Positions 221 through 47,182 of a stretch of DNA of 64,000 nt are shown in pieces (the stretch's first letter is position 1; every line of letters starts with the position of its first letter). The stretch covers positions 480,001 through 544,000 of the forward strand of contig CM000435.1 of NCBI GenBank assembly GCA_000165345.1, given 5' to 3'. The translations under genes were made by a program, and so were the position numbers. The notes beneath the pieces are model-generated. The model was given only the letters and a program-made list of their open reading frames with translations, was not told where the DNA came from and made no database searches.

Positions 221-3007
221 TTATGCTGCTTCAAAACATTTAATGACGTCCAGACAGACAGATTCTGAGTTTGACCTGCAGGTAATCTTAACTAGGCAGC
301 CAAGCTCTGCATTGTTTACTATTATCGCGGTACATAAAAAGGGAGTTTTTGCAAAATAAGTACCGGAAAACAAGAGGGTGTGATTAGAGGATTCTAAGTT
401 AACATTCTCTGTATTGTCGCATGCAGCTGCATTGACTAAGGCCAAAAGTCCATTAACAGCTGAAGGGATATTTTTATATGAAAATGAGAACTTGGCAATG
501 TGCTCAATTCCGCTAGTTTCGAGAATATTCCAAACATTTTTGAACTCTCCCTGCCTCAAATAGTTAGGGATTATACAGTCAGAGTGTGAGAGAGTCATTG
601 GATCAATAGTAAATATATCATTATATCCACAATTTTCATCACCATCTTCACAATATAAATAGTCCAGTTTGCATGGAATAACATTTGAAACATTTGGGAA
701 GTGATCTTGTGTAGAATTCTGAATAAGCACGAAAATTGATTCAGCTTGCCCTGGCTCGAGTTTTGGAATAGGAGCGCTTGCTATAATCGAAAATCCATCA
801 ATTGCAGCCTCGAATTCAACATTTACATTTTTTAAGAGCACATCATTTAAAGTATTAGCAACCTGGAACTCTAGAACAATGAATTTGCCTTCATTGAAGA
901 AGTGTTTTCTTAATTGAACCAAATATTCTGATTCGCTTTCAGTTAGAGGAATAGAAGTTGAAGTGAATAAATGGCTGCCCAAATCCTGAGCAGAAATACA
1001 GCCTGAAAGTCGTTCATATATAAGGGAAACATTGACTCCAGTAGAGGTTTTATCTGAAGAGTTTTCTGTTTGGTTTTGGTTTCCTCGAGTTCTGGAAATA
1101 TTGAGAGCTTCCATAGAAGCTGAAACAGAAGTAATATTTGAAGTTATTTGGGAGCCATTGACTGTTGACTCTACGGGGTCTGTTGGTAGGGAATTTAAGT
1201 CCAAAAGAGTTTCAGGTTCGTTTGAAACGACTTTTCCAAGAATAAATGAGAGATTACGTATAGTGTCCGCCTCTTTAGATATTAAATGCTCTCCAAAAAG
1301 GCTTGAATTAGTTAAATCACACTTATTATCATCTGAATCGTCCAGTGAATCTGAAGTAGACTTGTCATCTATGATCATTGAGTAAGTGTTTGTTCGATCT
1401 CTGACTTCGTCATCATTATCTTTGGAACAAACTTGGAGAAGAGTTCTGATATCTTCTCTTAAATCATCGCAAACTAGGGCAATTTGAACCAATGCATCAA
1501 TGCTGGCAGCTCTTACTGCAGAGCTTTCTAGTATGAGCCTATTAAAAATATACCTAATAAATCTGGAGGGAGTATTGGTCTTTGGAATATTCTTCCCAAG
1601 AAATCCCAAAATTCTGATAGTAATTACAGGATACTCGCAGTCTTCTATAGTTTCGCAAGCATGATATAGAATGCTTTCCAGAATATCAGGAATCTCATTA
1701 GAAATATCAAATAATGTATCAATTACGAAAGATTTAAAATCAAGGCTTCCCTCTTCTCTCAAATTGGTCGCCAAGAATGAAAGGATATTCTTGTGTTTTG
1801 TAGGGTATTTCAGGATAAGATTCTTAGTGGCTCTGATAATATCTTTTTTTCCGCCGTCACTAATATCAGCAATAAATGCAGGGATTTGCTTGACAAGCTT
1901 GTCAAGATTATTTTCTTGAGCTATTTTGAGTAAAATAGTGAGTACTAAAGTTGCCATGATTCTATTAGAGTCGTTAAGCAAAGGCTCTAGTTCATGTTGG
2001 CACTTAAAGACAATATTTGGACTTACATTGGCTAGTTCATTAAGAATTCTGACAGCAGCGAACTTTGCCACTGAAATATTCGAGTTTAAAATCATTTGAA
2101 GGGCATTCGAAATTTGCGAAATGTCAATAAAACCAAGTGCTTTATGATTTTGTTTCTCGTGCAAAAACTTTAAAATATCGCATATTCCTCTAGAAGCCTC
2201 TAAAGATACAGCTTCACTTCTACTCTTAAGCATTGTATGGAAGCCATCTAATATCCAGCTTACGTTTTCCCATGAGGAGTCCTGCTTACAAAGAAGAAAA
2301 AACATATTCTTCATTTGTCTGAGCATCAGACAATCGCTATATACAGACTTTATTGGCATCTTGTAGAGCATCTCTATAATCTTTTGTGTTGCCAGTCGAT
2401 CATTATTTCTCAATTCGAATAAAAGTACCAAAGCGTGGTATTGCACCATTCCGTCCCTTCCTTGAATACATTCACTTATTTCATTGAGCCAGCGCCTAGG
2501 AATATCTCCGTGGCCTCTTAGTGCCAAATTATAACCACACAACAGTGCACTGCTCGCAACAAAGGAGTTCTTATCAACTATTGCAGACTTTAAATACCTC
2601 TCAACTTGTCCGATCATTGTACCATCCGCAATCTTACTTATAACCCTGAGAGAATTTGCTCTGTAACAATCATTATTGCTATTCATGTCCTTAATTAGAG
2701 AACTTATGACAACAAATGCTTCGCTTTCATTTACTTTTAAGCTCTTTATTGCTAAGTATACAAGTCTTCTTAAATCTTGGTTGTTTGATTGGAATAATCT
2801 CGTGATTCCAAAGAATAAATCTGACCATTCTTGGTCAGTAAGCCTCTCTCCACTATTGATCATATTCAAAACCTTGGTCAAAACTGTGCAGCATTTTTTT
2901 GAGTTTAAATGGGCCTCGCTAAAACATCTTGTTTCCTGCAAAATTGAGCTTTTCTCACCCAAAAAAGGATTAATTGCAACTCCCTTATCGTCACCTTTCA
3001 AATCCAT
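221..3007 (-). CDS. COPG: Coatomer (COPI) gamma subunit, 928 aa, single exon
   Basis: Full-length ORF with ATG at 3007. The N-terminal adaptin/HEAT trunk has coatomer-gamma signatures (LRRLVYLAIKSL, MVQYHALVLLFELRNNDRLA) and a C-terminal appendage domain. Internal + strand ORFs 1032-3146 are antisense artefacts. Confidence 0.92.
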   Translation of the reverse strand: MDLKGDDKGVAINPFLGEKSSILQETRCFSEAHLNSKKCCTVLTKVLNMINSGERLTDQEWSDLFFGITRLFQSNNQDLRRLVYLAIKSLKVNESEAFVVISSLIKDMNSNNDCYRANSLRVISKIADGTMIGQVERYLKSAIVDKNSFVASSALLCGYNLALRGHGDIPRRWLNEISECIQGRDGMVQYHALVLLFELRNNDRLATQKIIEMLYKMPIKSVYSDCLMLRQMKNMFFLLCKQDSSWENVSWILDGFHTMLKSRSEAVSLEASRGICDILKFLHEKQNHKALGFIDISQISNALQMILNSNISVAKFAAVRILNELANVSPNIVFKCQHELEPLLNDSNRIMATLVLTILLKIAQENNLDKLVKQIPAFIADISDGGKKDIIRATKNLILKYPTKHKNILSFLATNLREEGSLDFKSFVIDTLFDISNEIPDILESILYHACETIEDCEYPVITIRILGFLGKNIPKTNTPSRFIRYIFNRLILESSAVRAASIDALVQIALVCDDLREDIRTLLQVCSKDNDDEVRDRTNTYSMIIDDKSTSDSLDDSDDNKCDLTNSSLFGEHLISKEADTIRNLSFILGKVVSNEPETLLDLNSLPTDPVESTVNGSQITSNITSVSASMEALNISRTRGNQNQTENSSDKTSTGVNVSLIYERLSGCISAQDLGSHLFTSTSIPLTESESEYLVQLRKHFFNEGKFIVLEFQVANTLNDVLLKNVNVEFEAAIDGFSIIASAPIPKLEPGQAESIFVLIQNSTQDHFPNVSNVIPCKLDYLYCEDGDENCGYNDIFTIDPMTLSHSDCIIPNYLRQGEFKNVWNILETSGIEHIAKFSFSYKNIPSAVNGLLALVNAAACDNTENVNLESSNHTLLFSGTYFAKTPFLCTAIIVNNAELGCLVKITCRSNSESVCLDVIKCFEAA

Positions 3008-3541
3008 TTTGTTTTTTATTTCCCTCCTTTCTTATGCGAGGAATTCTTATTTAAGGGGGAAAAAAGCCTTTTTGATTACTTCAAAACAGTTTCTTGTATC
3101 CCCCCCTCAATTCTCTCACAAATACGCTTTAATGTTGCCGCTATAATCTTTTTTTGCTAACTATGAAATTTCAAATTTTTTTTTTTCTTATAAAATAATA
3201 CTCAGTCAGTTAAGTTAATTAAATCATTATACAGAACATAAAAGTTTTCATTAGCACTATTGATTATCTCCAGTACTATATATTTATATTCTTTCCTTCT
3301 TTATAAAATCATTATAGCTTCTGTATCTTACCTATATTCATTTTCCCACAAAATTAATAGCTTTATAGATAAATATTTCTGAATTTTTCTTTGAAATTAT
3401 AACACTAAGCCCGTTAATTTTGATTATTCTTTAATATTTATCTGAATGCATGGAGAAAAGTAGTGGCATGTTTCCCGCCAAAGCCCACACAGAGCATTTA
3501 ATGGAGTGAAATTGTCTTGAAATAACGAGAATATATTAGAG

Positions 3542-4310
3542 ATGGCTGAAGAGAGTTTAGATTTGATTGAGGAGTTTATTAAGACCAGGGATGAGTTGCA
3601 AAAGCGTTCCTTTTCAAGTGTTGACTGGGATGTTGATTATATACTAATGAATGAAACAGTAAGTTGGATTATAGTTATTTCTATTGAGTCAAGTAGATAG
3701 GGATAGCAAATTAGACCCAATTTCAAAAATTAATTTTCTAGCTACTACCTTGTAGAATGGCACTAAGTCAAAAAGAATGTGCTTTTATGTGTATGGATAG
3801 CCAATTAAAAGAAAATAATGAGGTACGTACATGGATTTAATAATACAAAAAATGATCAGCTTTATTGAATCGTAGATTTTAGCTGGCGAGATATTGCAAC
3901 TACCAATATGGCTTGCAAGGGAACTCTATTCTCGAGGCTTCGTTGGGATTGATTATCCGGATTTTCTTTCGTCAAAAATGTCAAACGCTTTAAGAACTGA
4001 CCCCTGTAGTGTGGACTTAAACAATATTTCACCCTATTTCTTTCAAGTTAGTGTAATTTTCCTGGGTTTACTACAAGATGAATTATTTCTCAAGGTAATT
4101 TTGGAATCCTTTCGCAGCCGCCTGGAAAAGTTGTTCCTAGTTTCAATCTATTTGCATCTGCCTAATTCTTCTGAATCTTCAAAGATGAATAATGACCATA
4201 CACAGGTATTTCTTAAATCTCTTACTTCAATCGAAAAAGATATGTTAGAAGAATCATCTATTAGTTACTTCCAATCTGCAAATGCTTTATACTGTAGAAG
4301 AGTAAAGTAG
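3542..4310 (+). CDS. PSF3: GINS complex subunit PSF3, 3 exons (3542-3658, 3742-3822, 3876-4310), about 210 aa
   Basis: Introns 3659-3741 (GTAAGT..CTAG) and 3823-3875 (GTACGT..GTAG) keep the reading frame. The spliced protein carries PSF3 motifs: VDYILMNETLLP (human DDILMSHEKLP), LQLPIWLARELY (human LELPLWLAKGLF) and TDPCSVDLNNISPYFF (human ADPNVVDLHKMGPHFY). The ORF track shows only exon 3, with a TTG pseudo-start. Confidence 0.75.
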
Positions 4311-4389
4311 GCAATTTAAATATTATATAAGAAACAAAAAAAAAACAACTTATGAAACTATAATTAAAATAAGCGAGTGAATCTAAGGA

Positions 4390-7300
4390 TTAACGCCTCT
4401 TCCTAGAGTACCCAGAGTCTACTCTTCTATCTTCGTCTTGTTCCCTTCCCCTCTTTCTGTCCTCCTTTATGGCCTGTTTTTCAAGCTCATCCCAACTTAG
4501 ACCTTCTTCTTCATCGCTTGAAAGCTCCTTAAAAGAGTCATCAGAACTTTCCTCCTCAAGATCCGAAAGATCCTCATCGTCATCGTCGTCATCATCATCT
4601 TCATCATCTTCATCACTCTCAGAATATTCTTCATCCTCATCATCATCGTCATCGTCGCTTCCGCCCTCTTCATCATCGCTATCTTCACCTAGGAAACCGT
4701 TGAAGCCTCCATTTTGTACAAAATCTTCAATATCGCTCAATATTGTCTTCAATACAGCATTCCAGTTGAGATTTTGCCTTCCTTCGTAGTAAACAATCTC
4801 CATTTCGTTAAGCCAGCGCTTAATTAAATCTAAATACTCAATAGGAATTGAGTCTACTCGTTTTACAGGCTTTGAATAGTCTTTTGTGACAAAAATCATA
4901 TCAAAGTTGCGAAGTCCCTGTTCGACCCTCTCAAATGATACAACTTCTATTTCATCCAATGAAAGTACAAATGGTGGGAACTCGAGTAGATGAACTAGAC
5001 AAGATGCTGTTGGAAAGAGTTGAACATTTGAAACCCCAGCCCTTCCTGGAACACCATAGAATCCAAGGTCTCTATAAGGAATTTCTGCTTCAAAACTATT
5101 TTTGCTCAACTCTTCAATTCCTTGTATGAATTTTTTATATTCAAGGTTATACCTTTTCTTTGTTTCACGTTCACGCTGTTCCTCCATTATTTCATCAGGA
5201 TCGTACACATTTCTACCTCTTCTCTGCTCTAAATCATCAATTTGGTTTCCTACCTCAGAGTAGAACTGAATATCTTGGGTTTTCTTTTTTCCAAGCCAAA
5301 TTGAATGTTTAAGGTGCAAATGTAAAATGACTATCAAATCGTTTTCCACAGGTTGAAATATTGCATGTTTAATGCTGGTATATAAAATATCAATTGTCTC
5401 ACCCTTGGATGAACTAAACCTGAATCCGTTGTTATGAGCCTCTAATATACCGTGTTGGCGTCTGCCCTGTCCAATTGTGGGCCGAATTCCAACATCTTTA
5501 AGAACTACTCTTTGTTTTGATCTATTGAAATCGATTGGCTGTTGATTCTTAATCATATCCTGTTCTGCCATTTCCTCCTCAAGTGTGCCTTTCTGTTTAA
5601 ATCTTTTAATTAATTCCTTAATGCTTCTGAAGATACTATTTAATGTCTTTCCATCTTCTGAACGAATCATTAGCTCTTTAATAAATACAGGGGTCTTCAA
5701 GGTACTTGGTAACTGCTCTAAAGAAATTCCTGTTGGTAGCAGAAAGTTAATTCTCAAAATAAAAGATTTCCTTCCCTCTTCCTGAGTACAGACAACATTT
5801 TTAAGTAGTCTAACGTGGAAAGGAACCAAAAGACCGTAAATTGGTACAAGGATGCTTTCCTTTGCAGTATCAACATAAATTCTACTAGAACTCCTTTCTT
5901 TTGGATACTCTTTAACAGACTTATAACTTGAAAGCTTGGAATTGAAAAAGTCCTCTTCAGAGTCTGAAATATCTCCTTTTTGGTCATTCTTTTCCTCCTT
6001 CTTACCTCCAAACCGTTTCTGAAGCTCAACAAGTTTACGTTTTCTAAGTTCTTTTTGTCTGTTTTCTATCTCCTTGAGTTCCTCTGAGTGTTCAGAGTTA
6101 TTTACTCTTCTGGCAGTTCTTCTTAGTCTATCTTCAATTATTAAATGCTCTTTAGATTTCTTTTCTTTTTTAATTTCCTTAGAATCTTTTTTTGACTTTG
6201 AATGTCTATCGTCTTCACTATCCTCTTCTGTCTCATCATCGTCAAACTCCTCTTCAGACTCATCAAGCTCCTTTTTTGTTGGCTTTTCCTTCTTAACTTG
6301 TGAAGTCTTTTCTTTCTTTACAACAGGTTTCTGCTCTTCAGGCTCTTCATCATCCAGTTCATATGAGACATGTTCCAGCTTCTTGCTACATCCTTGTGTC
6401 AGGACTTCCACATTGCCTTCTTGGGATAAAAATACAGTATCACAAATCCAAATTGCGTACTTTTTGCCATTAGAGTCCAGATTATTGAATCCAATAGATA
6501 AATTAAAAGTCATTCCTTTCTGTACTAGAACATCTGGGGACGATCTTGGGCTGATTATTAAAGAAGGATCTCTGAACTCAATTCCTATGCAATGTCCCAT
6601 AATCTTAACAAACTTTTGGGCAAGCTCGGTTCCCTTATCTTCAACTATCTTCTGGTAAATACCAGAATAAAGATCGTTAAAAGATGTTCCTTCCTTTATT
6701 CTGGAAATTAGAGTTTCCATAAGTTCCAAGCAATAATTATAAAGACTTTTCTGTTCTTCAGTTGAGTTTAAAAAGTATGTCCTCGTAATGTTTGCACAAT
6801 ACTCTCTATACTTTGAACCTATACTTAATATTATACAACCAGAGGTCAAACACAAGTTTTCATCAGAATTCTCTACTGCTTTTAGCTCAAAATTAGAGCC
6901 ACTTTGGACAAGAGAGTACACCAAATCTATATCTTCCGGATCCAAACCGTACTTTGTTTTCCAAGCATTGTGAATTGTCTTATCATCTAAAGCAGCTTCT
7001 GCACGCCTTCCAATGTTCTTGTGAGACTCTTTCAATTCTTTATCTAAAATGGTTTCGATTCTCTGCAATAACACTCCCTTCAACATCTGGACAGATAAAA
7101 CTGCTGCTTTTTTACACAGTCCAAGCTCTACTTCATCCTTGTGGCACAACAAGTAATCTATAGATGCTGTCACCATCGTGGTCTCCTTGTTACTAAATGG
7201 GTTATCTCCTGAAAACAATTCTTCGCATTGTGATGCAAATTGGCCATCCTGAAGTCCAGCAGGTTCTATTCTCCCAATAGTAGTAGTTGCTTCAGCAATA

Positions 7301-7716
7301 TTTGAAACTAGCTCCTTGTGGTTTTCAAATGATTCTTTTAGATCTCCTTTCCTATCAACTAGAATCAACTCTATATTTGGGAAATTATCCGAAGATCCTT
7401 CTAATAATTGCTGGAGAATTGATACCTTTTTTTGACTTGTAACTATTACAATTTTTTTTTTACGAGAGAATAAAATTAAAGTGTCAGAAAATTCAAAACC
7501 AAACAACCAATAATGGAGTGTCATACTCTTATAAATTACTCCATCCTCTCTAGAAGAACCTTTTCCACACAAAACATATAGAAGGTCCACTTCCCTCAGG
7601 TTTTTGAACACATTTTTATTATCATACTTAGTGTTCTCTTCCAGCCAAACCGAGTATAGGAATTGGATCCTCCTTCCAAAAGATGCAACGTCTAACTTGA
7701 CCTGATCTTTGCCCAT
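4390..7716 (-). CDS. SPT16: FACT complex subunit SPT16, 1108 aa, single exon
   Basis: N-terminal aminopeptidase-like Spt16 domain (WLFGFEFSDTLILF) followed by the dimerisation and middle domains. It ends in a long Asp/Glu-rich acidic tail. ATG at 7716. Confidence 0.95.
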   Translation of the reverse strand: MGKDQVKLDVASFGRRIQFLYSVWLEENTKYDNKNVFKNLREVDLLYVLCGKGSSREDGVIYKSMTLHYWLFGFEFSDTLILFSRKKKIVIVTSQKKVSILQQLLEGSSDNFPNIELILVDRKGDLKESFENHKELVSNIAEATTTIGRIEPAGLQDGQFASQCEELFSGDNPFSNKETTMVTASIDYLLCHKDEVELGLCKKAAVLSVQMLKGVLLQRIETILDKELKESHKNIGRRAEAALDDKTIHNAWKTKYGLDPEDIDLVYSLVQSGSNFELKAVENSDENLCLTSGCIILSIGSKYREYCANITRTYFLNSTEEQKSLYNYCLELMETLISRIKEGTSFNDLYSGIYQKIVEDKGTELAQKFVKIMGHCIGIEFRDPSLIISPRSSPDVLVQKGMTFNLSIGFNNLDSNGKKYAIWICDTVFLSQEGNVEVLTQGCSKKLEHVSYELDDEEPEEQKPVVKKEKTSQVKKEKPTKKELDESEEEFDDDETEEDSEDDRHSKSKKDSKEIKKEKKSKEHLIIEDRLRRTARRVNNSEHSEELKEIENRQKELRKRKLVELQKRFGGKKEEKNDQKGDISDSEEDFFNSKLSSYKSVKEYPKERSSSRIYVDTAKESILVPIYGLLVPFHVRLLKNVVCTQEEGRKSFILRINFLLPTGISLEQLPSTLKTPVFIKELMIRSEDGKTLNSIFRSIKELIKRFKQKGTLEEEMAEQDMIKNQQPIDFNRSKQRVVLKDVGIRPTIGQGRRQHGILEAHNNGFRFSSSKGETIDILYTSIKHAIFQPVENDLIVILHLHLKHSIWLGKKKTQDIQFYSEVGNQIDDLEQRRGRNVYDPDEIMEEQRERETKKRYNLEYKKFIQGIEELSKNSFEAEIPYRDLGFYGVPGRAGVSNVQLFPTASCLVHLLEFPPFVLSLDEIEVVSFERVEQGLRNFDMIFVTKDYSKPVKRVDSIPIEYLDLIKRWLNEMEIVYYEGRQNLNWNAVLKTILSDIEDFVQNGGFNGFLGEDSDDEEGGSDDDDDDEDEEYSESDEDDEDDDDDDDDEDLSDLEEESSDDSFKELSSDEEEGLSWDELEKQAIKEDRKRGREQDEDRRVDSGYSRKRR

Positions 7717-8170: not shown

Positions 8171-9865
8171 TTATTTCTTATCTTTTGATTTTAATAGAGG
8201 TCTTTCAGCATTCTTATTAACGTTCTCATTGATCAAGTGTAATTTCTGGAATTGTTCTAGCTGCATCCTAATAGTGTCTTTGTGTAACTCACCAAGTGTG
8301 GAGTCACTTTTCAAGAAATCTATATCTTTTTCTTGAACTTGAACGTTAAGGACTCGGTCTTTTAAGTTAGGCTGAGGAGTAAATATATTTTGATCTTTCT
8401 TGACAATATTTTCTGCAATAGATTGTAGAGCTTTGCTTTCTGGATCAATTTTCTTTAGAAGCTCAACTAAATCTTCGTGGCTCCTACCTTTAGTTAATTC
8501 ATAATTTGGCCACTTAGCATTGATTGATTCTTGTTTAATCAGATTATTATATTTGTTCTGTGAAACCTCCAGAGCTTTCTTAGTTTCTTCTAGTTGTTGT
8601 TCAATACTTTGAATCTTTCTTTCCAACTCAAATTTCTCGCTTTCAAGTTTCTTGTACAAAGGTGAAGAAGTTTGTGCTTGCGGAGAACTTTTATCTTCGA
8701 TATTTGTTGATAATACTATAATTCTCTCTCTTAACATTCGTATTTGTTCATTAGAATCTTTAAGTCTCTCTGACAAATGTTTATTATCTTCTTCCATCAT
8801 GATAGAAACATGCTTGGCAGCTTCTAATTCCGAACCTTTTGATTTATAAAGTTCATCCAGTTTCTCCAGATGAGTACCAATATCAAAAAGAGACTTTTGA
8901 ATTTCATTGACGAATACTAAAGCTGAATGATCGTTATTCAAAATCGAAGCAATAACCTCGATTTTCCCGAATATAATGTTCACTGTTTGTACTATATTAA
9001 GAACCAAGTCATTTTTTGTTTCTATTCCAATCTTATTTTCCGTAGGGAAAACGGAATACTTGATATCTCCTATCCTTTGATGGATTGTACTCAATTGTTT
9101 TGATAACGTTGCAATTAACTGCGATTCGTTATTTGGGTTATTTTTTGAAACGAAATCATGAACAGCTTCCCCTAATTGGAATAAACTTTCTCTAAGCTCT
9201 TTGTTTTCCTTTTCCAAATCATTATTTGAGGGATTCACCCCTCCCTTAAATTGGTCTTTTGCATTATTTGAGAAACTAAAGTTAGAATCATGTGAACCAG
9301 GGAATTCTGGAGTCATTATTCCTGATTTTTCAGGAGCACAACAAAAAACTGAACCAATTCCACCTGAATTTGGGCTTTTTAAACCTGTATTTTGTCCGAC
9401 ACTTGGTTGAGCACCACAAGTCCCCATCCAAGGTATAAATGAATTAAGTAACTTTGTCCCTATTCCCGAATTACGTTGTTCTCTTTCTGGAGAAGGCATT
9501 GGAGAGGAAGGAACGTTCAGGTTTTGCGGTATTGAAGACGCTGGGTATGGAACGCCATTTATACTTTGGTTTTGAGCAGTAAATGTTGACATCATCAATT
9601 CTTGAGCTGGCGTAAGCTGTGTTCCTAAACCCGGAGGCTTCCCCATGACTCCAACCCTTGGAATTGGCACTTGTCTTGGAAACATCTGTGATTGAACATT
9701 TGGAGGTATTTGGCTTGATCTATTTGGCGAATGTGGAGTGCTGTATACTCCCATTCTTGGAACTGCACCTGGAAATACAGGACCATTTTGTCTTGTTGGC
9801 ATTCCCCCAGCCATGGGACTTGGAATCCCCCCCCAAGGTTGAGCGTTGAGTGGCACTTGCTGCAT
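8171..9865 (-). CDS. Hypothetical protein with a Pro/Gly/Met/Gln-rich N-terminal half and a C-terminal coiled-coil (about 564 aa)
   Basis: Long ORF. The track start at 9886 is GTG; the first in-frame ATG is at 9865. No family recognised. Confidence 0.55.
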   Translation of the reverse strand: MQQVPLNAQPWGGIPSPMAGGMPTRQNGPVFPGAVPRMGVYSTPHSPNRSSQIPPNVQSQMFPRQVPIPRVGVMGKPPGLGTQLTPAQELMMSTFTAQNQSINGVPYPASSIPQNLNVPSSPMPSPEREQRNSGIGTKLLNSFIPWMGTCGAQPSVGQNTGLKSPNSGGIGSVFCCAPEKSGIMTPEFPGSHDSNFSFSNNAKDQFKGGVNPSNNDLEKENKELRESLFQLGEAVHDFVSKNNPNNESQLIATLSKQLSTIHQRIGDIKYSVFPTENKIGIETKNDLVLNIVQTVNIIFGKIEVIASILNNDHSALVFVNEIQKSLFDIGTHLEKLDELYKSKGSELEAAKHVSIMMEEDNKHLSERLKDSNEQIRMLRERIIVLSTNIEDKSSPQAQTSSPLYKKLESEKFELERKIQSIEQQLEETKKALEVSQNKYNNLIKQESINAKWPNYELTKGRSHEDLVELLKKIDPESKALQSIAENIVKKDQNIFTPQPNLKDRVLNVQVQEKDIDFLKSDSTLGELHKDTIRMQLEQFQKLHLINENVNKNAERPLLKSKDKK

Positions 9866-10194
9866 TTTTGGGACGCCAAGTTCCACTTAAAATATCAGTT
9901 ACTTTACCTATTAAACACACAAATCTACAATTCCCGCTACTACTTTAATTCCTTACTTTTCTATTATGTCATTAGTCTTTTGAACAAATATTTTTTTATT
10001 GACTTTAAGTATACGTCTACAAAATGTCCATATTAGAAATATGTTAATATAAGAAAAAGAATACAGAATAACAAATAAATCTTTACTAGAATGACTTAAA
10101 ATACAAGGATAAACAATTATAAATGAGTAGTACAACATATCTTGCTGCTAATCTTCACTCCAGTTTTTACCTTGTCACCATTATTATAATTTTT

Positions 10195-11211: not shown

Positions 11212-12951
11212 TTAATTTACATTGTTTGCTGCACTGCTCGAAGATTGCGAATGTCCATCACTTATATGAGCAGCGTTATCTCTTGATTCTGCAGATGTAT
11301 GTCTTTGGACAGAACTTCTTTTGCCTCTGTCAGTCCCAGAAGCATCTGAAAATCCTTCAGAATGATAGCTTCCTTCAGAGAGACGACTTCTCCTTCTTAG
11401 TTCTCTTTGCCTAATTCCTCTTCTTATATATCTATCATTCATCTTTAGGGATCTAGCAATAGGAGAAAACCCAACAACAAGACCCAACAGTAGGCCTAAT
11501 ATCAGGCCTATAACCCACGATATGGTTCCAGAGTGAGCCATTAATCCAATTGATGCCCCAGTTCCTAATCCACCAATACCTCCCAAAGCTGCTCCAAGTC
11601 TTCCAACAAGCAATACTGACATGAAGAGATTAGTTAGAGACCCACCGAGTGAAAGAGCCCCAGCAAAGCAAGACGAAACTAGTCCTCCAACAAGCATACC
11701 AACAAATATTCCAAGACCTCCGCTACCTGCCAGCCAGTATCCACCTCCTTTCCAAAAATGTGAAGACTTAAGGCCAAGAGAGAACAGGGCAGATTGCCAG
11801 TATATAGCCAAGAAGGCCATCACCATATATGCCGCGAAAGATATTATTGATCCACTCCAAACTGGCCAACAACAACATTTGCTGAAACAGAATCCACATT
11901 TTATTTCCTCATCTGTTAAAGGAGCATTGCCCAAAGAGCTAGATACATTTGAAGCTACTGTAGATGAAGGCAAAGTTTGAGTATTCGCTGTGGTTCCACT
12001 GGAGCTTGATCCTGATTTCAAAATTGGAACGTTTTTGGTCATGAGCTTAAACCCTCCACTAGATTTCAAACATATTTTAGTATCACTATTTGCTTGAATA
12101 AAGGCTAAAGAATATTTTGAAGACTTTGTTGTATGCATATTTGGAACACTAATTGCTGAACATTCTGACTTCTCATCCTTAAGACTTAGCGACCCAGAGA
12201 TTCCGGAAGAGTCAATTGTTATCTTCTCTGCGTTTTTCAATCTTGAAAAGTTACTTGAAATGATTGACCTTTTATTAGAGGTTGAGGTTGAATCTTCCTC
12301 TTCTTTGATGTGTTTTTCATCAGTATTTTCTCCTGTTTCCTTATTTTCTTCATTACTTTCACTCTTTTCCTCTTTATTTTCATTCTTTTTTTCTTTATCT
12401 TCATTTTTTACCTCTTCTTTCTTATCTTCACTTTCTTTATCTTCACTTTTTTTATCCTTTTCATCCTTTTCTTTCTTTTCATCCTTTTCTTTCTTTTCAT
12501 CCTTTTCTTTCTTTTCTTCTTTTTCTTTCTTTTCTTCCTTCCCTTCATCACCACCTTCTTCGCTCTTTGAATCTTTAACTGGGCATTTTTTCAGAATTTC
12601 TGAACATCCTGACTCGCATACAGACAAGACCATAATTTCATTTGACAATGTTCCAATGTCTGATGACTCCTCGTTACATGCTAAAGTGCAAAATAGATTC
12701 TTTAAAAATGAAGAACATTCCGTATTTGCGCCTCCATTTAATTCTGAATATTCTTCTGCCATGGAAAGCAACTTATCAGAACAACAGGCACATGGATTGT
12801 TAGAACAATCCTCTGTACTTGATAGCAATGGGTTTTCTGTTTCTACCTTTGCTTCTGAAGCTATCGGAACTCCATTTGTGAACTTATAAGCGCATACTTC
12901 CAATAAAAGTAAAAATAATAATTTGATTGATAAACTTTTTAATGCATACAT
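11212..12951 (-). CDS. Mucin-like membrane glycoprotein with Lys/Glu repeats and a C-terminal Gly-zipper transmembrane bundle (579 aa)
   Basis: Signal peptide MYALKSLSIKLLFLLLLEVCA, then a Cys-rich module, a (KEKDEK)n acidic repeat and a Ser/Thr-rich tract. A second Cys cluster (CGFCFSKCCCW) precedes 4-5 Gly-rich TM helices and a basic/Ser-rich tail. Confidence 0.7.
   Translation of the reverse strand: MYALKSLSIKLLFLLLLEVCAYKFTNGVPIASEAKVETENPLLSSTEDCSNNPCACCSDKLLSMAEEYSELNGGANTECSSFLKNLFCTLACNEESSDIGTLSNEIMVLSVCESGCSEILKKCPVKDSKSEEGGDEGKEEKKEKEEKKEKDEKKEKDEKKEKDEKDKKSEDKESEDKKEEVKNEDKEKKNENKEEKSESNEENKETGENTDEKHIKEEEDSTSTSNKRSIISSNFSRLKNAEKITIDSSGISGSLSLKDEKSECSAISVPNMHTTKSSKYSLAFIQANSDTKICLKSSGGFKLMTKNVPILKSGSSSSGTTANTQTLPSSTVASNVSSSLGNAPLTDEEIKCGFCFSKCCCWPVWSGSIISFAAYMVMAFLAIYWQSALFSLGLKSSHFWKGGGYWLAGSGGLGIFVGMLVGGLVSSCFAGALSLGGSLTNLFMSVLLVGRLGAALGGIGGLGTGASIGLMAHSGTISWVIGLILGLLLGLVVGFSPIARSLKMNDRYIRRGIRQRELRRRSRLSEGSYHSEGFSDASGTDRGKRSSVQRHTSAESRDNAAHISDGHSQSSSSAANNVN
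12340..12560. repeat. Degenerate coding tandem repeat; three perfect 18-nt units (catccttttctttctttt) at 12462-12515
   Basis: Direct repeat visible in the sequence. It encodes the KEKDEK-type repeat of the mucin-like gene on the minus strand. Confidence 0.8.
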
Positions 12952-13415: not shown

Positions 13416-13424
13416 TTTCCCGCC
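13416..13424. promoter_or_regulatory. E2F-type site TTTCCCGCC upstream of the mucin-like gene
   Basis: Classic TTTSSCGC E2F core in the 700-bp AT-rich intergenic region. A second TTTTTCCGCC-like site lies near 13155 and a GCATGCA motif at 13440-13446. Confidence 0.3.
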
Positions 13425-13646: not shown

Positions 13647-15119
13647 TTAGTTTAAGGACATCAAAATATCTAGTAAGTGCTGATCTACTGCGGTTTTGTT
13701 AATGATTGATTCACATATACTGATTGCTGTAGCTTCGTCAAACAATTTTGCTAGGTACAACAATAGGTGAAAGTCGTTGAGGAGATTGCAGGAAGTCAAA
13801 GGTACTGATGTTAGCCTGGATTTAATAAATTCTGAGACATCGCTTGGTTTCTGAGGAACAATTCTATTTTCTCTGGGAAACTGTGATGAGGAAAAGAAAG
13901 GTTTTGGTTGGATAGGGGCGGACTCATTAATGCGCACTATTAGCCAGTGGGCATCAAACTTGCGGGTAGATACACCCTTTTCTAGGATTTGTGGTAGAAT
14001 CTCACCCTTATCCTCTTCTCTAATAACAATATGAGTGTCGTCCTTTAATCCTTTCTCATCAATTATTTTGTCTCTGAGAAGAGCTAATCCAAGGTCAGAA
14101 ACTGCAAACGCATTTGGTATGGGGTCTCCTCCTTGGATAGACTTACAAGGAGCAATTGTACAGCAAATAAAGCTGCTAACAGGATAGCCAGTGTAATGAG
14201 GTGTTTTTAGTGCTTCTAACTGAAGCTTTCCAAGAGTAACAATCTCATTAGAAGTTAGTACTTCGTCTCTCTCATTATGTGTGAAAACCAATCCTAAACA
14301 TTCGAGACCAAGAGATTGAGCAACTCTATCGACTGTAGATTTAAAACTATCATTTTCGAGAATAAGCTTTCCTGGTTCAGCTTTCTCATCTTGTGGAGGT
14401 TCGTAAATTGCTTCCATTACAGCTCGAATACCCATCGGATATGTACTATCTTCTCGATAGTATCCATACATCCAACCGACTCTTTGTTTCATCATACCTA
14501 ATTTTGACCTCCAATAGTCAACAAATTGCATTGCTTCAGACAAATTCATCATCTCAAGGTGGTCAACGTGTCGATAAGCTTGGTGCCTTAGTGTAACTGA
14601 AGGGGGTATTTTGTTCATTACTCCTTTTGAAATAAAGAAAGATTTGTAGGATTGCTTAAGTGGTAGGTCATCAGTGACAAAATTTCTTTCGCTTAAAAAT
14701 GAATCAAATGATTTAAAATGTGGCCCTTCACTTTTTTCCACGCTATTATTCATATCCTTAGAATCAGCAGAAGAAGAAGATGGATAGTTTGAATTTGAGG
14801 GCTTCTTTTCAAGTGGAGGAAGGTCACTTGTTGTCATATGTTTTGGCCTTTGGATGCTTTGCGTAGCAATCTGTGGAGTTGCATCAGTAATCAAATAAAC
14901 TATCGAGCCATTAAAAAGACCATGTTGAAGCACACTAAGTGAGTCTCCCTTCAGTAGTGTGTTCCCATGTGAGTCTAAACTTAGAAGTTGTTGTTCTTCA
15001 GGAACCTTAAGCGACTGAGCTATCTTTGACTTTAACATTGAAAGGTTACATGTTGAAGGAATTGTCACTCTTGATCTTCCAGAGGAAGAGAAAACCCGGA
15101 TAATCCATTCTTCGTGCAT
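13647..15119 (-). CDS. NPL4: NPL4 homolog, a Cdc48/p97 cofactor (490 aa)
   Basis: N-terminal ubiquitin-like domain. The MPN/NPL4 core matches human NPLOC4 closely: YRHVDHLEMMN, FVDYWR, VGWMYGYY and GIRAVMEAIYEPPQ (human YRHVDNIMFEN, FLDFWR, FGYLYGRY, GIRAEVAAIYEPPQ). FHLLLYLA is also conserved. Confidence 0.85.
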   Translation of the reverse strand: MHEEWIIRVFSSSGRSRVTIPSTCNLSMLKSKIAQSLKVPEEQQLLSLDSHGNTLLKGDSLSVLQHGLFNGSIVYLITDATPQIATQSIQRPKHMTTSDLPPLEKKPSNSNYPSSSSADSKDMNNSVEKSEGPHFKSFDSFLSERNFVTDDLPLKQSYKSFFISKGVMNKIPPSVTLRHQAYRHVDHLEMMNLSEAMQFVDYWRSKLGMMKQRVGWMYGYYREDSTYPMGIRAVMEAIYEPPQDEKAEPGKLILENDSFKSTVDRVAQSLGLECLGLVFTHNERDEVLTSNEIVTLGKLQLEALKTPHYTGYPVSSFICCTIAPCKSIQGGDPIPNAFAVSDLGLALLRDKIIDEKGLKDDTHIVIREEDKGEILPQILEKGVSTRKFDAHWLIVRINESAPIQPKPFFSSSQFPRENRIVPQKPSDVSEFIKSRLTSVPLTSCNLLNDFHLLLYLAKLFDEATAISICESIINKTAVDQHLLDILMSLN

Positions 15120-28710: not shown

Positions 28711-31700
28711 ATGAAATTTCCAAAGGACTTAATAGGCTTTTGGATATTATCGTCAATGTTTTTTATCTGTTTTTCATTAGTTTATGGTACTAAAACAGAA
28801 AGCAATGTCAAAAATAGTCTCCCATACTTGGAACTAAACAAAGGAAACAAACAAGGTCTATTGCGACAGCACAGAATGGTGGGAGAATTTTTGGAATGTA
28901 CTTATGTTGAGCATATCGATAAAAATTTACAAGATGGAAAAAATGAGGATTATTATCCAGGAACAGGAATTGATCGAAACAAAAGTAGAGTGGTTTCTTT
29001 GGAATCAATTGATATTTCGAGTAAAATCATCAAAACTTTGGAATGTCAGAAAAAAATTATTGAACGTTGGATGAAAGATATTACTAAAACTTTAAAAGAA
29101 AATTTGTTTTCAGTCATTGAAATAAGGAGCTGGAGAGAAATGACAAGACCAAAAAGCTTGAATGGAGAAGCTGGCGAAATTTTAGCAATTCTAGAGAATA
29201 AAAACTCGAGTCCATTAAATAAAGTTAAAGAGGCTGTGGAGGCATTTGAAAAGTATATAACAGAACTTCACGATGCCTACTCAGAATTCCGAAATTCTGA
29301 AGAAAAGCTGGAATCTGCTTCTACTGAAGAAGAAAAAAGAACCAGAGCACAAGTTGCAGTGTTAATTCTTGGTCAAAAGGAGAACAGAAGTCTGCTTAAA
29401 TTTACAAAGATAATACGCAACAACGCGGACGATGCAAGAGATTCAAAAAAACTTCTTGAGAAACTGTTTCCACTACTTTCTGGTGAAAGCTATAACAACA
29501 GAATTCTTCAAGCTCTGGAGCTTATTCAAATTTGTTTCTTTTTACTTAATGGTTTGAATGTTTTATCCGTATTTGAAGAACAGAGGTTATCTAATAAGTT
29601 CAGAAGGGATATGGAAAGAAGGAATTTAATTTACCAGCACAAAATTGAAAATAAAACTCTTTCAAGGTACCCAAAATTCTCAAACTCACCAAATTTTAAG
29701 GATATATCAAATTTCCTCTTGAGCTCTGTAAATAAATCAAGTGATGCTGAAAGTGAAAATAAAGTAAAAGTTGAATTTATTCAGATGTTTGATGAGATTA
29801 CTCAAGACTTTGGTATTCGTTGTCCATATTTTCTTACTTCAATATTGAGATCCGGAAAAGTTGGTCACTCTTTAAAAGGAGAAGAGTTGTTCGATTTAAA
29901 TGCAGTAAAAAATTGTCGGCTTGCATGGAAGGAAATATCTTCGTATTTATATAAAGAAGGCCAGATTGTTCCTTCAGCTGCAATTAGACAAGCATTGAAG
30001 AAAGCCCTATACAAACATGTTAAGACAGTTTATGTTTGGCCTAGAAATGCTTTAGGACTATTTAAAAGTCTTTTTGATCGTTCTGAATTTGAAAGAGCAT
30101 TTGATACTAGCAATGAAAAGAGATTTATATCCACTTGTTCTGAGGCTATAAATAAAGAAATTGGTCTAGGAACTTCCCATGCAGTTAGTTTGGACGAAAT
30201 TGCAATCATATGTTTTGATTTCTTTAATTTATTAGAGTTTTACACAGATCAGTACAACTACGGAAATCAGGAGAATGTTGGAAGAGATGGAAACACCATT
30301 CTAGCAACTAAAAAGTACGTAAATATTAATACTTTACCATCAAAAATTAAGGCAAAAGCACTGGACGTAGCTTGCTCTAGAACATTAGTTGGATTAATCG
30401 ACTTTCCGCCATTCAAATCTAATGATCTTGACAGAACGGTTATCGGTATTCTAACAACAAATTTTATGGAAACATGTGTTCAACGTATAGAAACTGTTCT
30501 TGGAGAGGCGTCGAAGTATAGAATAAGTAATCCCCAAACAATATGTACAGAAGTTAGAAATATCCTTAAGGACTATAATATGTTGTCTCAAAAGCCTGAA
30601 AATATAGAGGGTTCAATGGATATTTTTGAGCAATTTAATATTCTTGATACATCTATAGTTACAGAAACTTCAAAAGGTGCATCCAAACCCTCGGATAGCA
30701 TTGAATATCTAAAAATGCTTCAAAGTAAGCTTGGTAGCTTACAGCCAAGTTTTCAATCTACCCAAAGTAAAGATATAGGAATTTCCCCAATAAGACAGCT
30801 TGACCCTGTGAAGGCATATAATTTGGTCCGAAAAATGCATTTAGACTGGATGGAGCAAATGAGAAATGATCCAAGATATAAAGGTTTTACAGATTTAGAA
30901 TTGAAAAATAACTCTCCTTGGAACAAACAAATGAAACTTTGGCATGAATTAATCACTCCTGAATTACCTGAAGTTAGATATGCAGCATCATACCTTAACA
31001 ATAGACCTTCTAGATTTCCGTTGATTTCTGGAGATAAGAGAGGAAAACATAAAAAAATCACTCCTTTAGAGGAATTTCTTAATGAGGATTTGGATCCAAA
31101 ATATAGAGCCAGATATCCACTAGTTGAAAATGGTCCGTTCGAAGAACAAGATTTTTATTATGATGACGAATATTATAAACATCCTTATGAAGATTCTATA
31201 GCTGCTGAAGCAGCTCAAACTCGAGAATATTACATTAAAAGGAAAAATGGGAGCTATATAAAGAACGAGAAAGGAAGTTATATTAAAGAAAGAAACGGAA
31301 AGTATGTTAAAATCAATAAAGGAGATTATATTAAAGAAGGGAGAAGAAACTATATTAAAAAAGACGAAGGCTATTATACTAAAAATGGTGAGATAAACCA
31401 GCATTATGCCGCAGTTCCAGTTATCCATGGAGAACAAATCACAGCGCAATTAGTGAGACCCAATAAAGAATATAATATTAAGGCATACCAAACAAGGAAT
31501 AATGCTTTGATTAACTACTCCTATATTGACAATGGATGCAAAGGCGAAGAATTACCTTTACTCTGGGGACAAAGAGCAACCATTTTACATGAAAATATGA
31601 TTAAAGGTTTCAAAATGGTTAAATATAGAGGGAAATATGGGCCAGGACATTTTGTATCTATGGATGATATATGTTATATTTTGGAGAGAGACTTTAAGGT

Positions 31701-31863
31701 GAAAAGAAATTATTTTGAGGATATTTCCAAAGTTAATTTAATGGAATGTCAAAAATGGTTTACAGAATATCTTTCAAAACTCTGGCCGCCATTTAACATG
31801 GAAAGCTTTAAAGCTGATGTAAAAACTTTATGTTGGGATTCTGGATTTAGAGGCTGGTTATAG
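28711..31863 (+). CDS. Large secreted protein (1050 aa) with signal peptide and a tandem G-x-Y-I-K repeat block; no recognised family
   Basis: N-terminal MKFPKDLIGFWILSSMFFICFSLVYG. A degenerate 9-10-aa repeat runs KRKNGSYIKNEKGSYIKERNGKYVKINKGDYIKEGRRNYIKKDEGYYTKNGE. Confidence 0.7.
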   Translation: MKFPKDLIGFWILSSMFFICFSLVYGTKTESNVKNSLPYLELNKGNKQGLLRQHRMVGEFLECTYVEHIDKNLQDGKNEDYYPGTGIDRNKSRVVSLESIDISSKIIKTLECQKKIIERWMKDITKTLKENLFSVIEIRSWREMTRPKSLNGEAGEILAILENKNSSPLNKVKEAVEAFEKYITELHDAYSEFRNSEEKLESASTEEEKRTRAQVAVLILGQKENRSLLKFTKIIRNNADDARDSKKLLEKLFPLLSGESYNNRILQALELIQICFFLLNGLNVLSVFEEQRLSNKFRRDMERRNLIYQHKIENKTLSRYPKFSNSPNFKDISNFLLSSVNKSSDAESENKVKVEFIQMFDEITQDFGIRCPYFLTSILRSGKVGHSLKGEELFDLNAVKNCRLAWKEISSYLYKEGQIVPSAAIRQALKKALYKHVKTVYVWPRNALGLFKSLFDRSEFERAFDTSNEKRFISTCSEAINKEIGLGTSHAVSLDEIAIICFDFFNLLEFYTDQYNYGNQENVGRDGNTILATKKYVNINTLPSKIKAKALDVACSRTLVGLIDFPPFKSNDLDRTVIGILTTNFMETCVQRIETVLGEASKYRISNPQTICTEVRNILKDYNMLSQKPENIEGSMDIFEQFNILDTSIVTETSKGASKPSDSIEYLKMLQSKLGSLQPSFQSTQSKDIGISPIRQLDPVKAYNLVRKMHLDWMEQMRNDPRYKGFTDLELKNNSPWNKQMKLWHELITPELPEVRYAASYLNNRPSRFPLISGDKRGKHKKITPLEEFLNEDLDPKYRARYPLVENGPFEEQDFYYDDEYYKHPYEDSIAAEAAQTREYYIKRKNGSYIKNEKGSYIKERNGKYVKINKGDYIKEGRRNYIKKDEGYYTKNGEINQHYAAVPVIHGEQITAQLVRPNKEYNIKAYQTRNNALINYSYIDNGCKGEELPLLWGQRATILHENMIKGFKMVKYRGKYGPGHFVSMDDICYILERDFKVKRNYFEDISKVNLMECQKWFTEYLSKLWPPFNMESFKADVKTLCWDSGFRGWL
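31240..31395 (+). repeat. Coding tandem repeat (about 27-30-nt units) encoding the G-x-YIK motif copies
   Basis: Repeated ggaagttatattaaaga / ggagattatattaaaga units seen directly. Confidence 0.5.
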
Positions 31864-33771: not shown

Positions 33772-35154
<1,383 letters not shown>

Positions 35155-44550: not shown

Positions 44551-45462
44551 ATGGGCTTCAGCGGAGATAAAATAGAATCTTCGTGTAATATTCGGTCTCA
44601 ACGAAGGCTTAGAACTGATACTGCAGAGGCAGTTTTTGGCAATTTTTGGGAAGCACCAAAAAATTCAAATTTTCACTCCAGGGGAGTGAAAAAAAATAAA
44701 CAAAACTATGAACATGAGATAGCTGAAAATTCTACCCAGAAGTCAGACTCAGATTCCTTAGATAAAAAGTTTAATATTACAAACTTGGACACTCAAGAAA
44801 GATTGAGCTTTTATGAGTCACAAGGAGCAGAGCCATACCTTTCTAAGTACCCAACTATAACTTCTATACTTACAGAAACACAACCTAAAAGGTGGATGAT
44901 AATGTTTAGTAGAGCTCAATCTTCAAGTTCTAGGGATTCTAAAGATGGAAAGAATAATAAAAAGAATTCTAAAATAAATTCTTCAGGTTTAACAAACGAA
45001 GATTTACCGTTTAACAAAATGCAATTTATATGGAGTTCTGAGTTGGATGAACACAAAAGGGTCAAGTTAAATAACAAAAACAGTCCAAGTTCACAATCTT
45101 TATTATCTGACCCAAATGACCTTTCACCAATCGTAATTAATTTTCCCCACCCTATTCAGCTTCAGAATATTTCTATTCCATACGAGGTTCTAGACCCAAG
45201 GTCCGTTCCATGCGGCTCATTTATTTGGTGGGATAGAAGAGTATGGGAATATAATTTTGTTTATATGGCCAGAAGACTATCTACTAACGATGAAAAAAGT
45301 CGTAAAAAACTCAATATAGAAAACCCAGTAACTCCAAAGAAACAGATTAGAGCTTTAGGGGAAAGCAACGGACAAAGTTCTAAGCGTTCAAGACCAAAAG
45401 TAGATGCAAACCCCAAACTAAATCAGAAATCAAAGTCTCCTAAGAATGTAATTAAGCAATAA
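44551..45462 (+). CDS. Hypothetical low-complexity Ser/Lys/Asn-rich protein (303 aa)
   Basis: ATG-initiated long ORF with no recognisable domain. Confidence 0.5.
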   Translation: MGFSGDKIESSCNIRSQRRLRTDTAEAVFGNFWEAPKNSNFHSRGVKKNKQNYEHEIAENSTQKSDSDSLDKKFNITNLDTQERLSFYESQGAEPYLSKYPTITSILTETQPKRWMIMFSRAQSSSSRDSKDGKNNKKNSKINSSGLTNEDLPFNKMQFIWSSELDEHKRVKLNNKNSPSSQSLLSDPNDLSPIVINFPHPIQLQNISIPYEVLDPRSVPCGSFIWWDRRVWEYNFVYMARRLSTNDEKSRKKLNIENPVTPKKQIRALGESNGQSSKRSRPKVDANPKLNQKSKSPKNVIKQ

Positions 45463-45530: not shown

Positions 45531-47086
45531 TTAATCTTCATCGCTTTCACTAATTAATCTGTTTAACTTTCTTTTAACTGGTCTCATTGTAGGCTCGGGC
45601 GATTTAGTCTGTAATGAAGGAGTATTCTCAACAGTAGAAGATTCAGAATCTTTGTTTTCTTCTATCTTGTTCACTTTGATTTCACTCGACTGATTAGGAG
45701 CTTCAGAACTGTTTTCAGCGAGATCTTTTTCAGCTTGACTACTCAAGTTCTTAGATACTGGAGCTCCCCATTCACTAATAATTTTCGTTTCTTCTATTTT
45801 AACCTTCTTTTTATCACAACTCAAAGAAGAATCTACTTCTTTGCGAGTTTCTGACTTTTGTTTTTCTGATAAAGGTGGCCTAGAGGGAGTTTCATGAGTG
45901 TTTTTTCTTTCGTTTGATGCAGTCTTAAAAAAGCCATCCAAACATGTCTGTGAAGTCTTATTTTTGCTTTTCTTGATTCTTTCGCAATAGCTATTGACTC
46001 TAGCCTCATTGAAATTTTGTTCTTTTATAAGCCACTCCATAAGTTCTTCATACTTGGGGTTTGACCACTTAATCAAATCTTTTATTTGATTATTTTTTGA
46101 TACTAGGGGATTCTTAAAGAGCTCTCTGACCTTTGAGAAATCGAAGTTTCCTGGTATAGGATTTTTTGTCTGATCAATGTTTTTTAAAATGCTTTCAATA
46201 TTATGGTATTTTTTGAGTAATTTATAGGCTGTACTTGTTCCTATTCCTCTTATCGTTCCACAATAATCGCACCCACTCAAGATACAAAGATCAATAAATT
46301 GGTCCATATTTATATCAAGCTCAGAAAGGATCAAAGATAGCTTTATAATTTGCATACCATTTTTTTGTTTGCTTGGCGACTTATCAGTTATTTTGTTTGA
46401 AGATTCTGAAAAATTTAATTGTTTTATTTGGATTGGCGTACCAAATGTCAAAGAGTCTGCATCTTCTGTGACAACTCCATAAACTAGACCATCTTTACAT
46501 AGTTCTGCGCACTGTGCTTCCGCCTCTGATGGGGCATCTATACATGGCATTCCAAGAAAACCCAACAGTTTCTTAACATCTTCTACTTGCTTTTTTGTTA
46601 CATGTATAGTTCTAACAGATTGTTTTTTGATAAGCTCTTCATCTCCAATTTCTTGAGCTTTCTCTAGTTCAGCAAGTGCTTTCTCTCTTCTTTCATCTCT
46701 TTTTGTCAGTTCATCTTTCTTCATCTCTGGGGGAGCACCATCAAATACAAATACAGGTTTAATTCCTGCTTCTAGAAGTCTAGTGGTTCTCGAAAGCATC
46801 CCATTTATATGACTTGTGGATTCACCTGAAGAATTGGTTAAGTTACCCCACTGGCTTCCTTCTCTAATTGCTGCCAAAAACTGGTAAATCCACATACTAG
46901 CGTCTATTGCTACTCTTTTCCCTAGCAAGGAGCCGATTCCCTATAAAATTAAAGGAATTAGAAGTAATATTTAATATAGATCTCTAACTTTGTAATATAG
47001 TCTATTTAAAATGTTCAACTTACCTGCTGTTGGATACTTTTCGGAGCATTATCTGCAAGAAACTTAGTTAGGCCTTTAATTCCCAT
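45531..47086 (-). CDS. FEN1: Flap endonuclease 1 (FEN1), 2 exons (47086-47024, 46940-45531)
   Basis: The 5' micro-exon encodes MGIKGLTKFLADNAPKSIQQQ (human [21 protein letters not shown]). An 83-nt intron (GTAAGT..TTTTATAG) follows. Exon 2 begins GIGSLLGKRVAIDASMWIYQF, and XPG-N/I domains are colinear with human FEN1. The track ORF begins at an internal TTG. Confidence 0.92.
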
Positions 47087-47182
47087 ATTAAAATAAAGAT
47101 AGATTAAAATATAATTATTAGAGACTAATTTACAGCCTATTTAAATATTTACACTTTTAATGATAATTTCCCACTTTTATGT

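Follow-up and report, generated by a model that had tools for sequence, protein, structure and literature searches.

Between the genes for the coatomer gamma subunit and the FACT subunit SPT16 in Cryptosporidium parvum, a list of open reading frames (ORFs) offers little more than fragments, and this raises the question of which gene occupies the interval and how it is built. A preliminary description, made from the letters of the DNA, had placed a three-exon gene for PSF3 there. PSF3 belongs to the four-subunit GINS complex, and the CMG replicative helicase arises when GINS associates with Cdc45 and Mcm2-7. The window, meaning here the whole stretch of 64,000 nucleotides that was analysed, is an AT-rich part of C. 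parvum chromosome 7 (GCA_000165345.1, CM000435.1, 480,001-544,000 forward) with a G + C-content of 33.5%. For positions 3500-4350 of its + strand, the ORF list contains just a 52-aa ORF starting at an ATG (3542-3700) and a 138-aa ORF starting at a TTG (3894-4310). This agrees with the preliminary description, according to which only the TTG-initiated 138-aa fragment of the product is visible in the list; the 52-aa ORF has to be added. The interval is almost certainly occupied by the PSF3 (GINS3) gene of chromosome 7, which lies on the + strand, contains two phase-0 introns and encodes a PSF3-type protein of 210 aa. The gene and its neighbours are arranged as follows.

221..3007, - strand: coatomer gamma subunit, with Pfam Adaptin_N, COP-gamma_platf and Coatomer_g_Cpla
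3542..3658, + strand: PSF3 exon 1, 117 nt, 39 codons, begins at the ATG
3659..3741, + strand: PSF3 intron 1, 83 nt, GTAAGT...TTCTAG, phase 0, holds in-frame stops
3742..3822, + strand: PSF3 exon 2, 81 nt, 27 codons
3823..3875, + strand: PSF3 intron 2, 53 nt, GTACGT...TCGTAG, phase 0
3876..4310, + strand: PSF3 exon 3, 435 nt, 144 codons and the TAG stop, with the end of PSF3_N and the GINS helical domain
4390..7716, - strand: SPT16 (FACT subunit), with six SPT16 Pfam domains

In-silico splicing joined the three exons in frame (117 + 81 + 435 = 633 nt) into 210 aa and a stop codon and reproduced every coordinate of the model with 83- and 53-nt introns that had been put forward. When the same region was translated unspliced, many stop codons were met. 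The start was set at 3542 because an in-frame TGA lies at 3518 and no in-frame ATG is found upstream of 3542. An open frame is, however, poor proof of a splice model, as under a bare GT..AG rule 256 two-intron and 13 one-intron combinations from the ATG at 3542 are also open by chance. The open frame was therefore discarded as an argument for being non-discriminating, and reliance was placed on conservation and homology instead. On these grounds the three-exon model is beyond chance: the donor consensus is strong, the boundaries are kept in four other species, homology extends over both junctions and the product has an identical counterpart in public annotation. The introns are also of the type found in Cryptosporidium with regard to their donors (GTAAGT and GTACGT), their YAG acceptors, their lengths of 83 and 53 nt and their positions, which are kept in five species. 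The genome mean intron length is about 84-99 nt (PMC4637869).

The 210-aa product was searched against Pfam, and both PSF3_N and the Sld5-type GINS domain were found above their curated cut-offs. With 30.8 bits, PSF3_N (PF22466) exceeded its cut-off of 27 by only 3.8 bits; it matched residues 29-84, a segment made up of parts of all three exons and spanning both junctions. The GINS helical domain (PF05916, Sld5-type) matched residues 97-198 with 35.4 bits, where 22.3 is the cut-off. The N-terminal domain thus precedes the helical domain in the product. A small N-terminal domain ahead of the helical domain is the arrangement of Psf2 and Psf3, and the order is reversed in Sld5 and Psf1. A sequence search of the Protein Data Bank yielded 12 matches, all of them GINS subunit 3, with yeast, human and Drosophila among the sources; eleven carry the name PSF3 or GINS subunit 3, and the twelfth, 6raw_M ('AT18545p'), is in our view the Psf3 of Drosophila. 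The best match of the single sequence was yeast Psf3 with an E-value of 3.9e-13, and a profile of six sequences lowered the best E-value to 4.2e-14. Chains of Psf1, Psf2 or Sld5 were not among the Protein Data Bank matches, even at E<=10, neither for the single sequence nor for the profile. An AlphaFold prediction from a six-sequence Cryptosporidium alignment (mean pLDDT 40.9, pTM 0.28) was too poor for a fold search. Judged by both domains, their order and the Protein Data Bank matches, the assignment of the predicted protein to PSF3 is sound. The preliminary description had reached the same identity from two short strings, DYILMNETLLP and LPIWLAREL. Both are present, the former crossing the junction of exons 1 and 2 after DYILMNET and the latter lying within exon 3, and Pfam and the Protein Data Bank agree with that reading.

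Conservation was followed in an alignment of four species, namely C. parvum, Cryptosporidium sp. chipmunk genotype I, C. ubiquitum and C. canis, with C. bovis being compared separately. The exons measure 117/81/432 nt (without the stop codon) in all four aligned species without a single gap, and their variable columns fall on codon positions 1, 2 and 3 in numbers of 43, 19 and 138. Intron 1 is 83, 86, 80 and 86 nt long in the four aligned species and 180 nt in C. bovis; for intron 2 the lengths are 53, 52, 50 and 53 nt, and 82 nt in C. bovis. Such length shifts, including ones that are not multiples of three, would be intolerable in a coding region. Intron identity goes down to 53-60% between the most distant aligned pairs, and exon identity remains at 68-88%. 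Throughout the five species, GTAAGT and YAG of intron 1 and GT..AG of intron 2 are retained, and exon 2 comprises exactly 81 nt. C. bovis (VHIT02000002.1) also has three exons with introns at the same codon positions as in C. parvum. Its homologous exon 1 (L006:2692-2805) is followed by the 180-nt GTAAGT..CAG intron, exons 2 and 3 lie at L006:2986-3066 and L006:3149-3589, and its full three-exon gene (L006:2692-3589) encodes 211 aa, on which PSF3_N scores 24.9 bits, just under the cut-off of 27. The annotated PSF3 models of C. bovis and C. ryanae have 168 aa, start at an internal Met of exon 2 and lack exon 1. The N-terminal truncation seen for C. bovis probably applies to C. ryanae (P0006) as well, and both models could be corrected.

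The same gene model is present in the public databases. The C. parvum proteins QOY40509.1, WKS78879.1 and KAL5367507.1 (CPHLJ_7g1920) are 100% identical over 100% of the 210-aa product, and their sequence, locus span and neighbours are all the same as in the model described here, with nothing that differs. The 769-bp gene range with its 210-aa product is found in GCA_015245375.1, GCA_031892065.1 and GCA_048859185.1, and the DNA of the window matches these loci exactly. The first of these is the IOWA-ATCC assembly (Baptista et al. 2022), for which the authors make the blanket statement that all introns are supported by RNA-seq (PMC8744675). Through this general statement the PSF3 junctions have indirect, second-hand transcript support. 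The names of the C. parvum entries are only generic ('GINS subunit domain A') or read 'hypothetical protein', and 'PSF3' would be justified instead. In C. hominis, 210-aa proteins (OLQ17864.1 and others) of the same 90%-identity cluster are named 'DNA replication complex GINS protein psf3'; the listed member has T instead of A as residue 2, and a sister-species orthologue is thus already bearing the PSF3 name. The cluster also includes a 210-aa 'GINS complex protein family protein' of C. meleagridis, and further orthologous 210-aa models exist for C. ubiquitum, C. canis and the chipmunk genotype. Public annotation therefore already contains the gene with the exact exon structure and the PSF3 identity described here, and since the current annotations carry exactly this gene model, the finding is an ordinary one.

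Earlier versions of the gene were shorter. In the Iowa II annotation of 2004 it is a 'hypothetical protein, partial' of 144 aa (EAK90610.1 / XP_628369.1) that corresponds exactly to exon 3 and is devoid of exons 1 and 2 and of PSF3_N, and the entry of C. hominis TU502 is truncated to 110 aa. Two unnamed Logan/ENA entries comprise 138 aa, equal to the TTG ORF, and 162 aa, with a start that matches translation through intron 2. The expectation that a naive ORF call would truncate the gene was borne out by these public versions of 144, 110, 138 and 162 aa. That the gene is hidden, as had also been said, is true of the ORF list and of the earlier annotations, but no longer of the current annotations of C. 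parvum, C. hominis and C. meleagridis, which carry the 210-aa model. In an RNA-seq based re-annotation of 2015, intron-containing genes of C. parvum rose from 4.3% to 10.8% of the total, with a mean intron length of ~99 nt (PMC4637869), and PSF3 fits this class of genes. The gene is probably cgd7_1920, a link drawn only from the locus tag CPHLJ_7g1920. In the supplement of the same study, cgd7_1920/CHUDEA7_1920 is listed with an identity of 1 and a dN/dS of 0 (PMC4637869), which fits the PSF3 gene. A literature search found no paper on cgd7_1920 or on the GINS subunit PSF3 of Cryptosporidium.

Three other readings of the locus were weighed. The one that survives best, though very unlikely, is that exon 2 is skipped in the main product, with a single intron of 217 nt (3659-3875) leading to a protein of 183 aa. 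Exon 2 is an in-frame cassette of 27 codons, and a pairing of 3659 with 3875 would use the same strong donor and acceptor and leave the frame open. Its constant length in the five species, with changes that are mostly synonymous, speaks against skipping, as do its alignment to yeast Psf3, the loss of the PSF3_N match when exon 2 is deleted from the product, and its inclusion in all current annotations. It is hardly credible that only the exon-3 ORF (138-144 aa, as in the 2004 annotation) is real and that exons 1 and 2 stay open by coincidence. EAK90610.1 and both unnamed Logan/ENA entries do stop there, and the many GT..AG combinations that are open by chance would also be in line with this idea. 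However, exons 1 and 2 are gap-free with a third-position bias in the four aligned species, have homologous exons in C. bovis and supply PSF3_N, whose alignment to the yeast and human PSF3 proteins runs through both junctions. Moreover, exon 3 does not open with an ATG, and the listed ORF begins with TTG, a codon at which eukaryotic translation does not normally start. That the protein is another GINS paralogue (Psf2, Psf1 or Sld5) could be argued from PF05916, the strongest Pfam match of the product and common to all four subunits, but can practically be dismissed given a PSF3-specific N-terminal domain above its cut-off, a domain order that excludes Sld5 and Psf1, and Protein Data Bank matches that are PSF3 without exception up to E = 10.

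With the three-exon PSF3 gene being the preferred reading, its surroundings can be considered. Coatomer gamma and SPT16 had been named as neighbours, and FEN1 and RUVBL1 as lying elsewhere in the window; all four were confirmed by Pfam. The two distant genes are located as follows.

33781-35154, + strand: RUVBL1/TIP49, by Pfam
45531-46928, - strand: FEN1-type XPG nuclease, ORF-only version, by Pfam

Coatomer gamma and PSF3 are divergent, with a spacer of 534 bp between them. PSF3 and SPT16 are convergent, and 79 bp (4311-4389) separate their stop codons. As this gap is so short, the 3′ untranslated regions of PSF3 and SPT16 probably overlap as antisense transcripts. Coatomer gamma adjoins PSF3 in all five loci examined (C. 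parvum, chipmunk genotype I, C. ubiquitum, C. canis and C. bovis), and each of them has a gene of 1108-1114 aa at the position of SPT16; SPT16 Pfam matches were recorded for four of the five, with none recorded for the chipmunk locus. In three C. parvum chromosome 7 assemblies, PSF3 is likewise flanked by the genes for coatomer gamma (928 aa) and SPT16 (1108 aa). This order of COPG, PSF3 and SPT16 is simply conserved synteny in a compact genome. The idea of PSF3 and SPT16 forming a functional cluster or polycistron was rejected, because the two genes converge and are not co-transcribed. The window also contains six long ORFs, of 303-1050 aa each, without a Pfam family at E <= 1e-5.

8171-9886, - strand: ORF without Pfam family
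11212-12951, - strand: ORF without Pfam family
28711-31863, + strand: ORF without Pfam family
44551-45462, + strand: ORF without Pfam family
51146-53515, - strand: ORF without Pfam family
53944-55020, - strand: ORF without Pfam family

The preliminary description had further stated that several of the replication-related genes in the window carry E2F-like upstream motifs. In the spacer in front of PSF3, two adjacent elements were found.

3471..3482, - strand: E2F-like motif TTTGGCGGGAAA, 71 bp upstream of the PSF3 ATG
3484..3489, + strand: CCCACA, beside the E2F-like site; its reverse complement resembles the G-box-like DTGTGGGG

The E2F-like motif 4 of C. parvum is TTTGGCGGGAAV (Oberstaller 2013, PMC3734150). 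The copy upstream of PSF3 matches it exactly at 12 of 12 positions and is the sole match in the window, compared with about 0 expected. An E2F-like site is located at -66 to -83 of PSF3 in all five species, and in C. bovis it is of the motif-3 type (TTTGCCGCCA) and not of the motif-4 type. The distance from the first base of the E2F-like site to CCCACA is 12-13 nt, again in five of five species. According to the alignment, C. ubiquitum and C. canis carry CCCCACA and thereby an exact match to the G-box-like motif, from which C. parvum is one base off. Among the four aligned species, the most distant ones are 50-57% identical in the remainder of the upstream 100 bp. Judged from its sequence and its conservation, the E2F-like site probably ties transcription of PSF3 to DNA replication. 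A more tentative idea, which we regard as possible rather than probable, is that the E2F-like site and CCCACA, lying 53-83 bp upstream of the ATG with a spacing kept in five species, might form a composite promoter module for expression of PSF3 in the replication phase. If this were true and the pairing recurred at other replisome genes, it could define the S-phase regulon of the parasite, and the conserved pair might therefore merit a genome-wide look. Within the window, the pairing did not recur at SPT16, FEN1 or RUVBL1.

The statement on several E2F-carrying genes held for PSF3 with its full match, but not for the other three. Upstream of SPT16 and RUVBL1 only one-mismatch or degenerate GGCG cores were found, of a kind seen about once per 650 bp. 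FEN1 has no GGCG, CGCC or GCGC core within about 600 bp upstream and only the one-mismatch TTTCCCAC at 47167. The canonical E2F site TTTSSCGC occurs three times in its exact form in the window against 2.2 expected and is thus not enriched, and its one-mismatch form, with 98 copies against about 70 expected, is too common to inform. An E2F signature common to PSF3, SPT16, FEN1 and RUVBL1 was rejected for these two reasons.

The core of E2F-like motif 3, TTGSCGCC, was found 10 times in the window, compared with about 0.7 expected from shuffles. Its positions include 10211, 20810, 23951, 25845, 28540, 31920, 42134, 55765 and 60402, and nearly all copies are in intergenic spacers just upstream of genes (Aha1-like, M16 peptidase and several unannotated ORFs). 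No copy of TTGSCGCC in the window lies upstream of SPT16, FEN1 or RUVBL1. The motif-4 core TTCCCGCC has only one other copy in the window, at 13416-13424. It is situated between NPL4 (13647-15119, - strand) and the uncharacterised 579-aa ORF at 11212-12951 (- strand), about 465 bp upstream of the latter.

FEN1 (45531-47086, - strand) is likewise interrupted by an intron and appears shortened in the ORF list, where it begins with a TTG and lacks the first ~25 positions of the XPG_N profile. With the exons joined, the gene reads as follows.

47086-47024, - strand: FEN1 exon 1, MGIKGLTKFLADNAPKSIQQQ
47023-46941, - strand: FEN1 intron, 83 nt, GTAAGT..ATAG
46940-45531, - strand: FEN1 exon 2; the joined product has 490 aa

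For PSF3, the following course of expression can be proposed. The gene would be transcribed on the + strand, probably under E2F control through the site 71 bp upstream, as suggested by the motif and its conservation. The spliceosome would then remove the two phase-0 introns of 83 and 53 nt, and translation from the ATG at 3542 would yield the 210-aa protein with its N-terminal domain followed by a helical bundle. By analogy to GINS in general, the protein would serve as one of the four GINS subunits that bridge Cdc45 and Mcm2-7 in CMG. As PSF3 is a universal and essential subunit of the eukaryotic replisome, its occurrence in Cryptosporidium was to be expected, and the biological weight of the finding is small. 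The case illustrates that short genes of several exons, which ORF lists break into fragments, can be recovered when splice sites and homology are read directly from the DNA.

Psf3 of Saccharomyces cerevisiae, as contained in CMG structures (e.g., 7qhs_C and 3jc5_C), aligns over residues 24-200 of the product with the E-value of 3.9e-13 given above, whereas human GINS3 (2q9q_D and 2e9x_C) aligns only over residues 31-129 with an E-value of about 1e-6. Sequence identity is low, and an insertion that yeast Psf3 carries after LWLAR is absent in Cryptosporidium. The alignment to yeast Psf3 includes the DxDxxL...PC and LPLWLA blocks, and the order of the two domains is common to yeast Psf3, human GINS3 and the Cryptosporidium protein.
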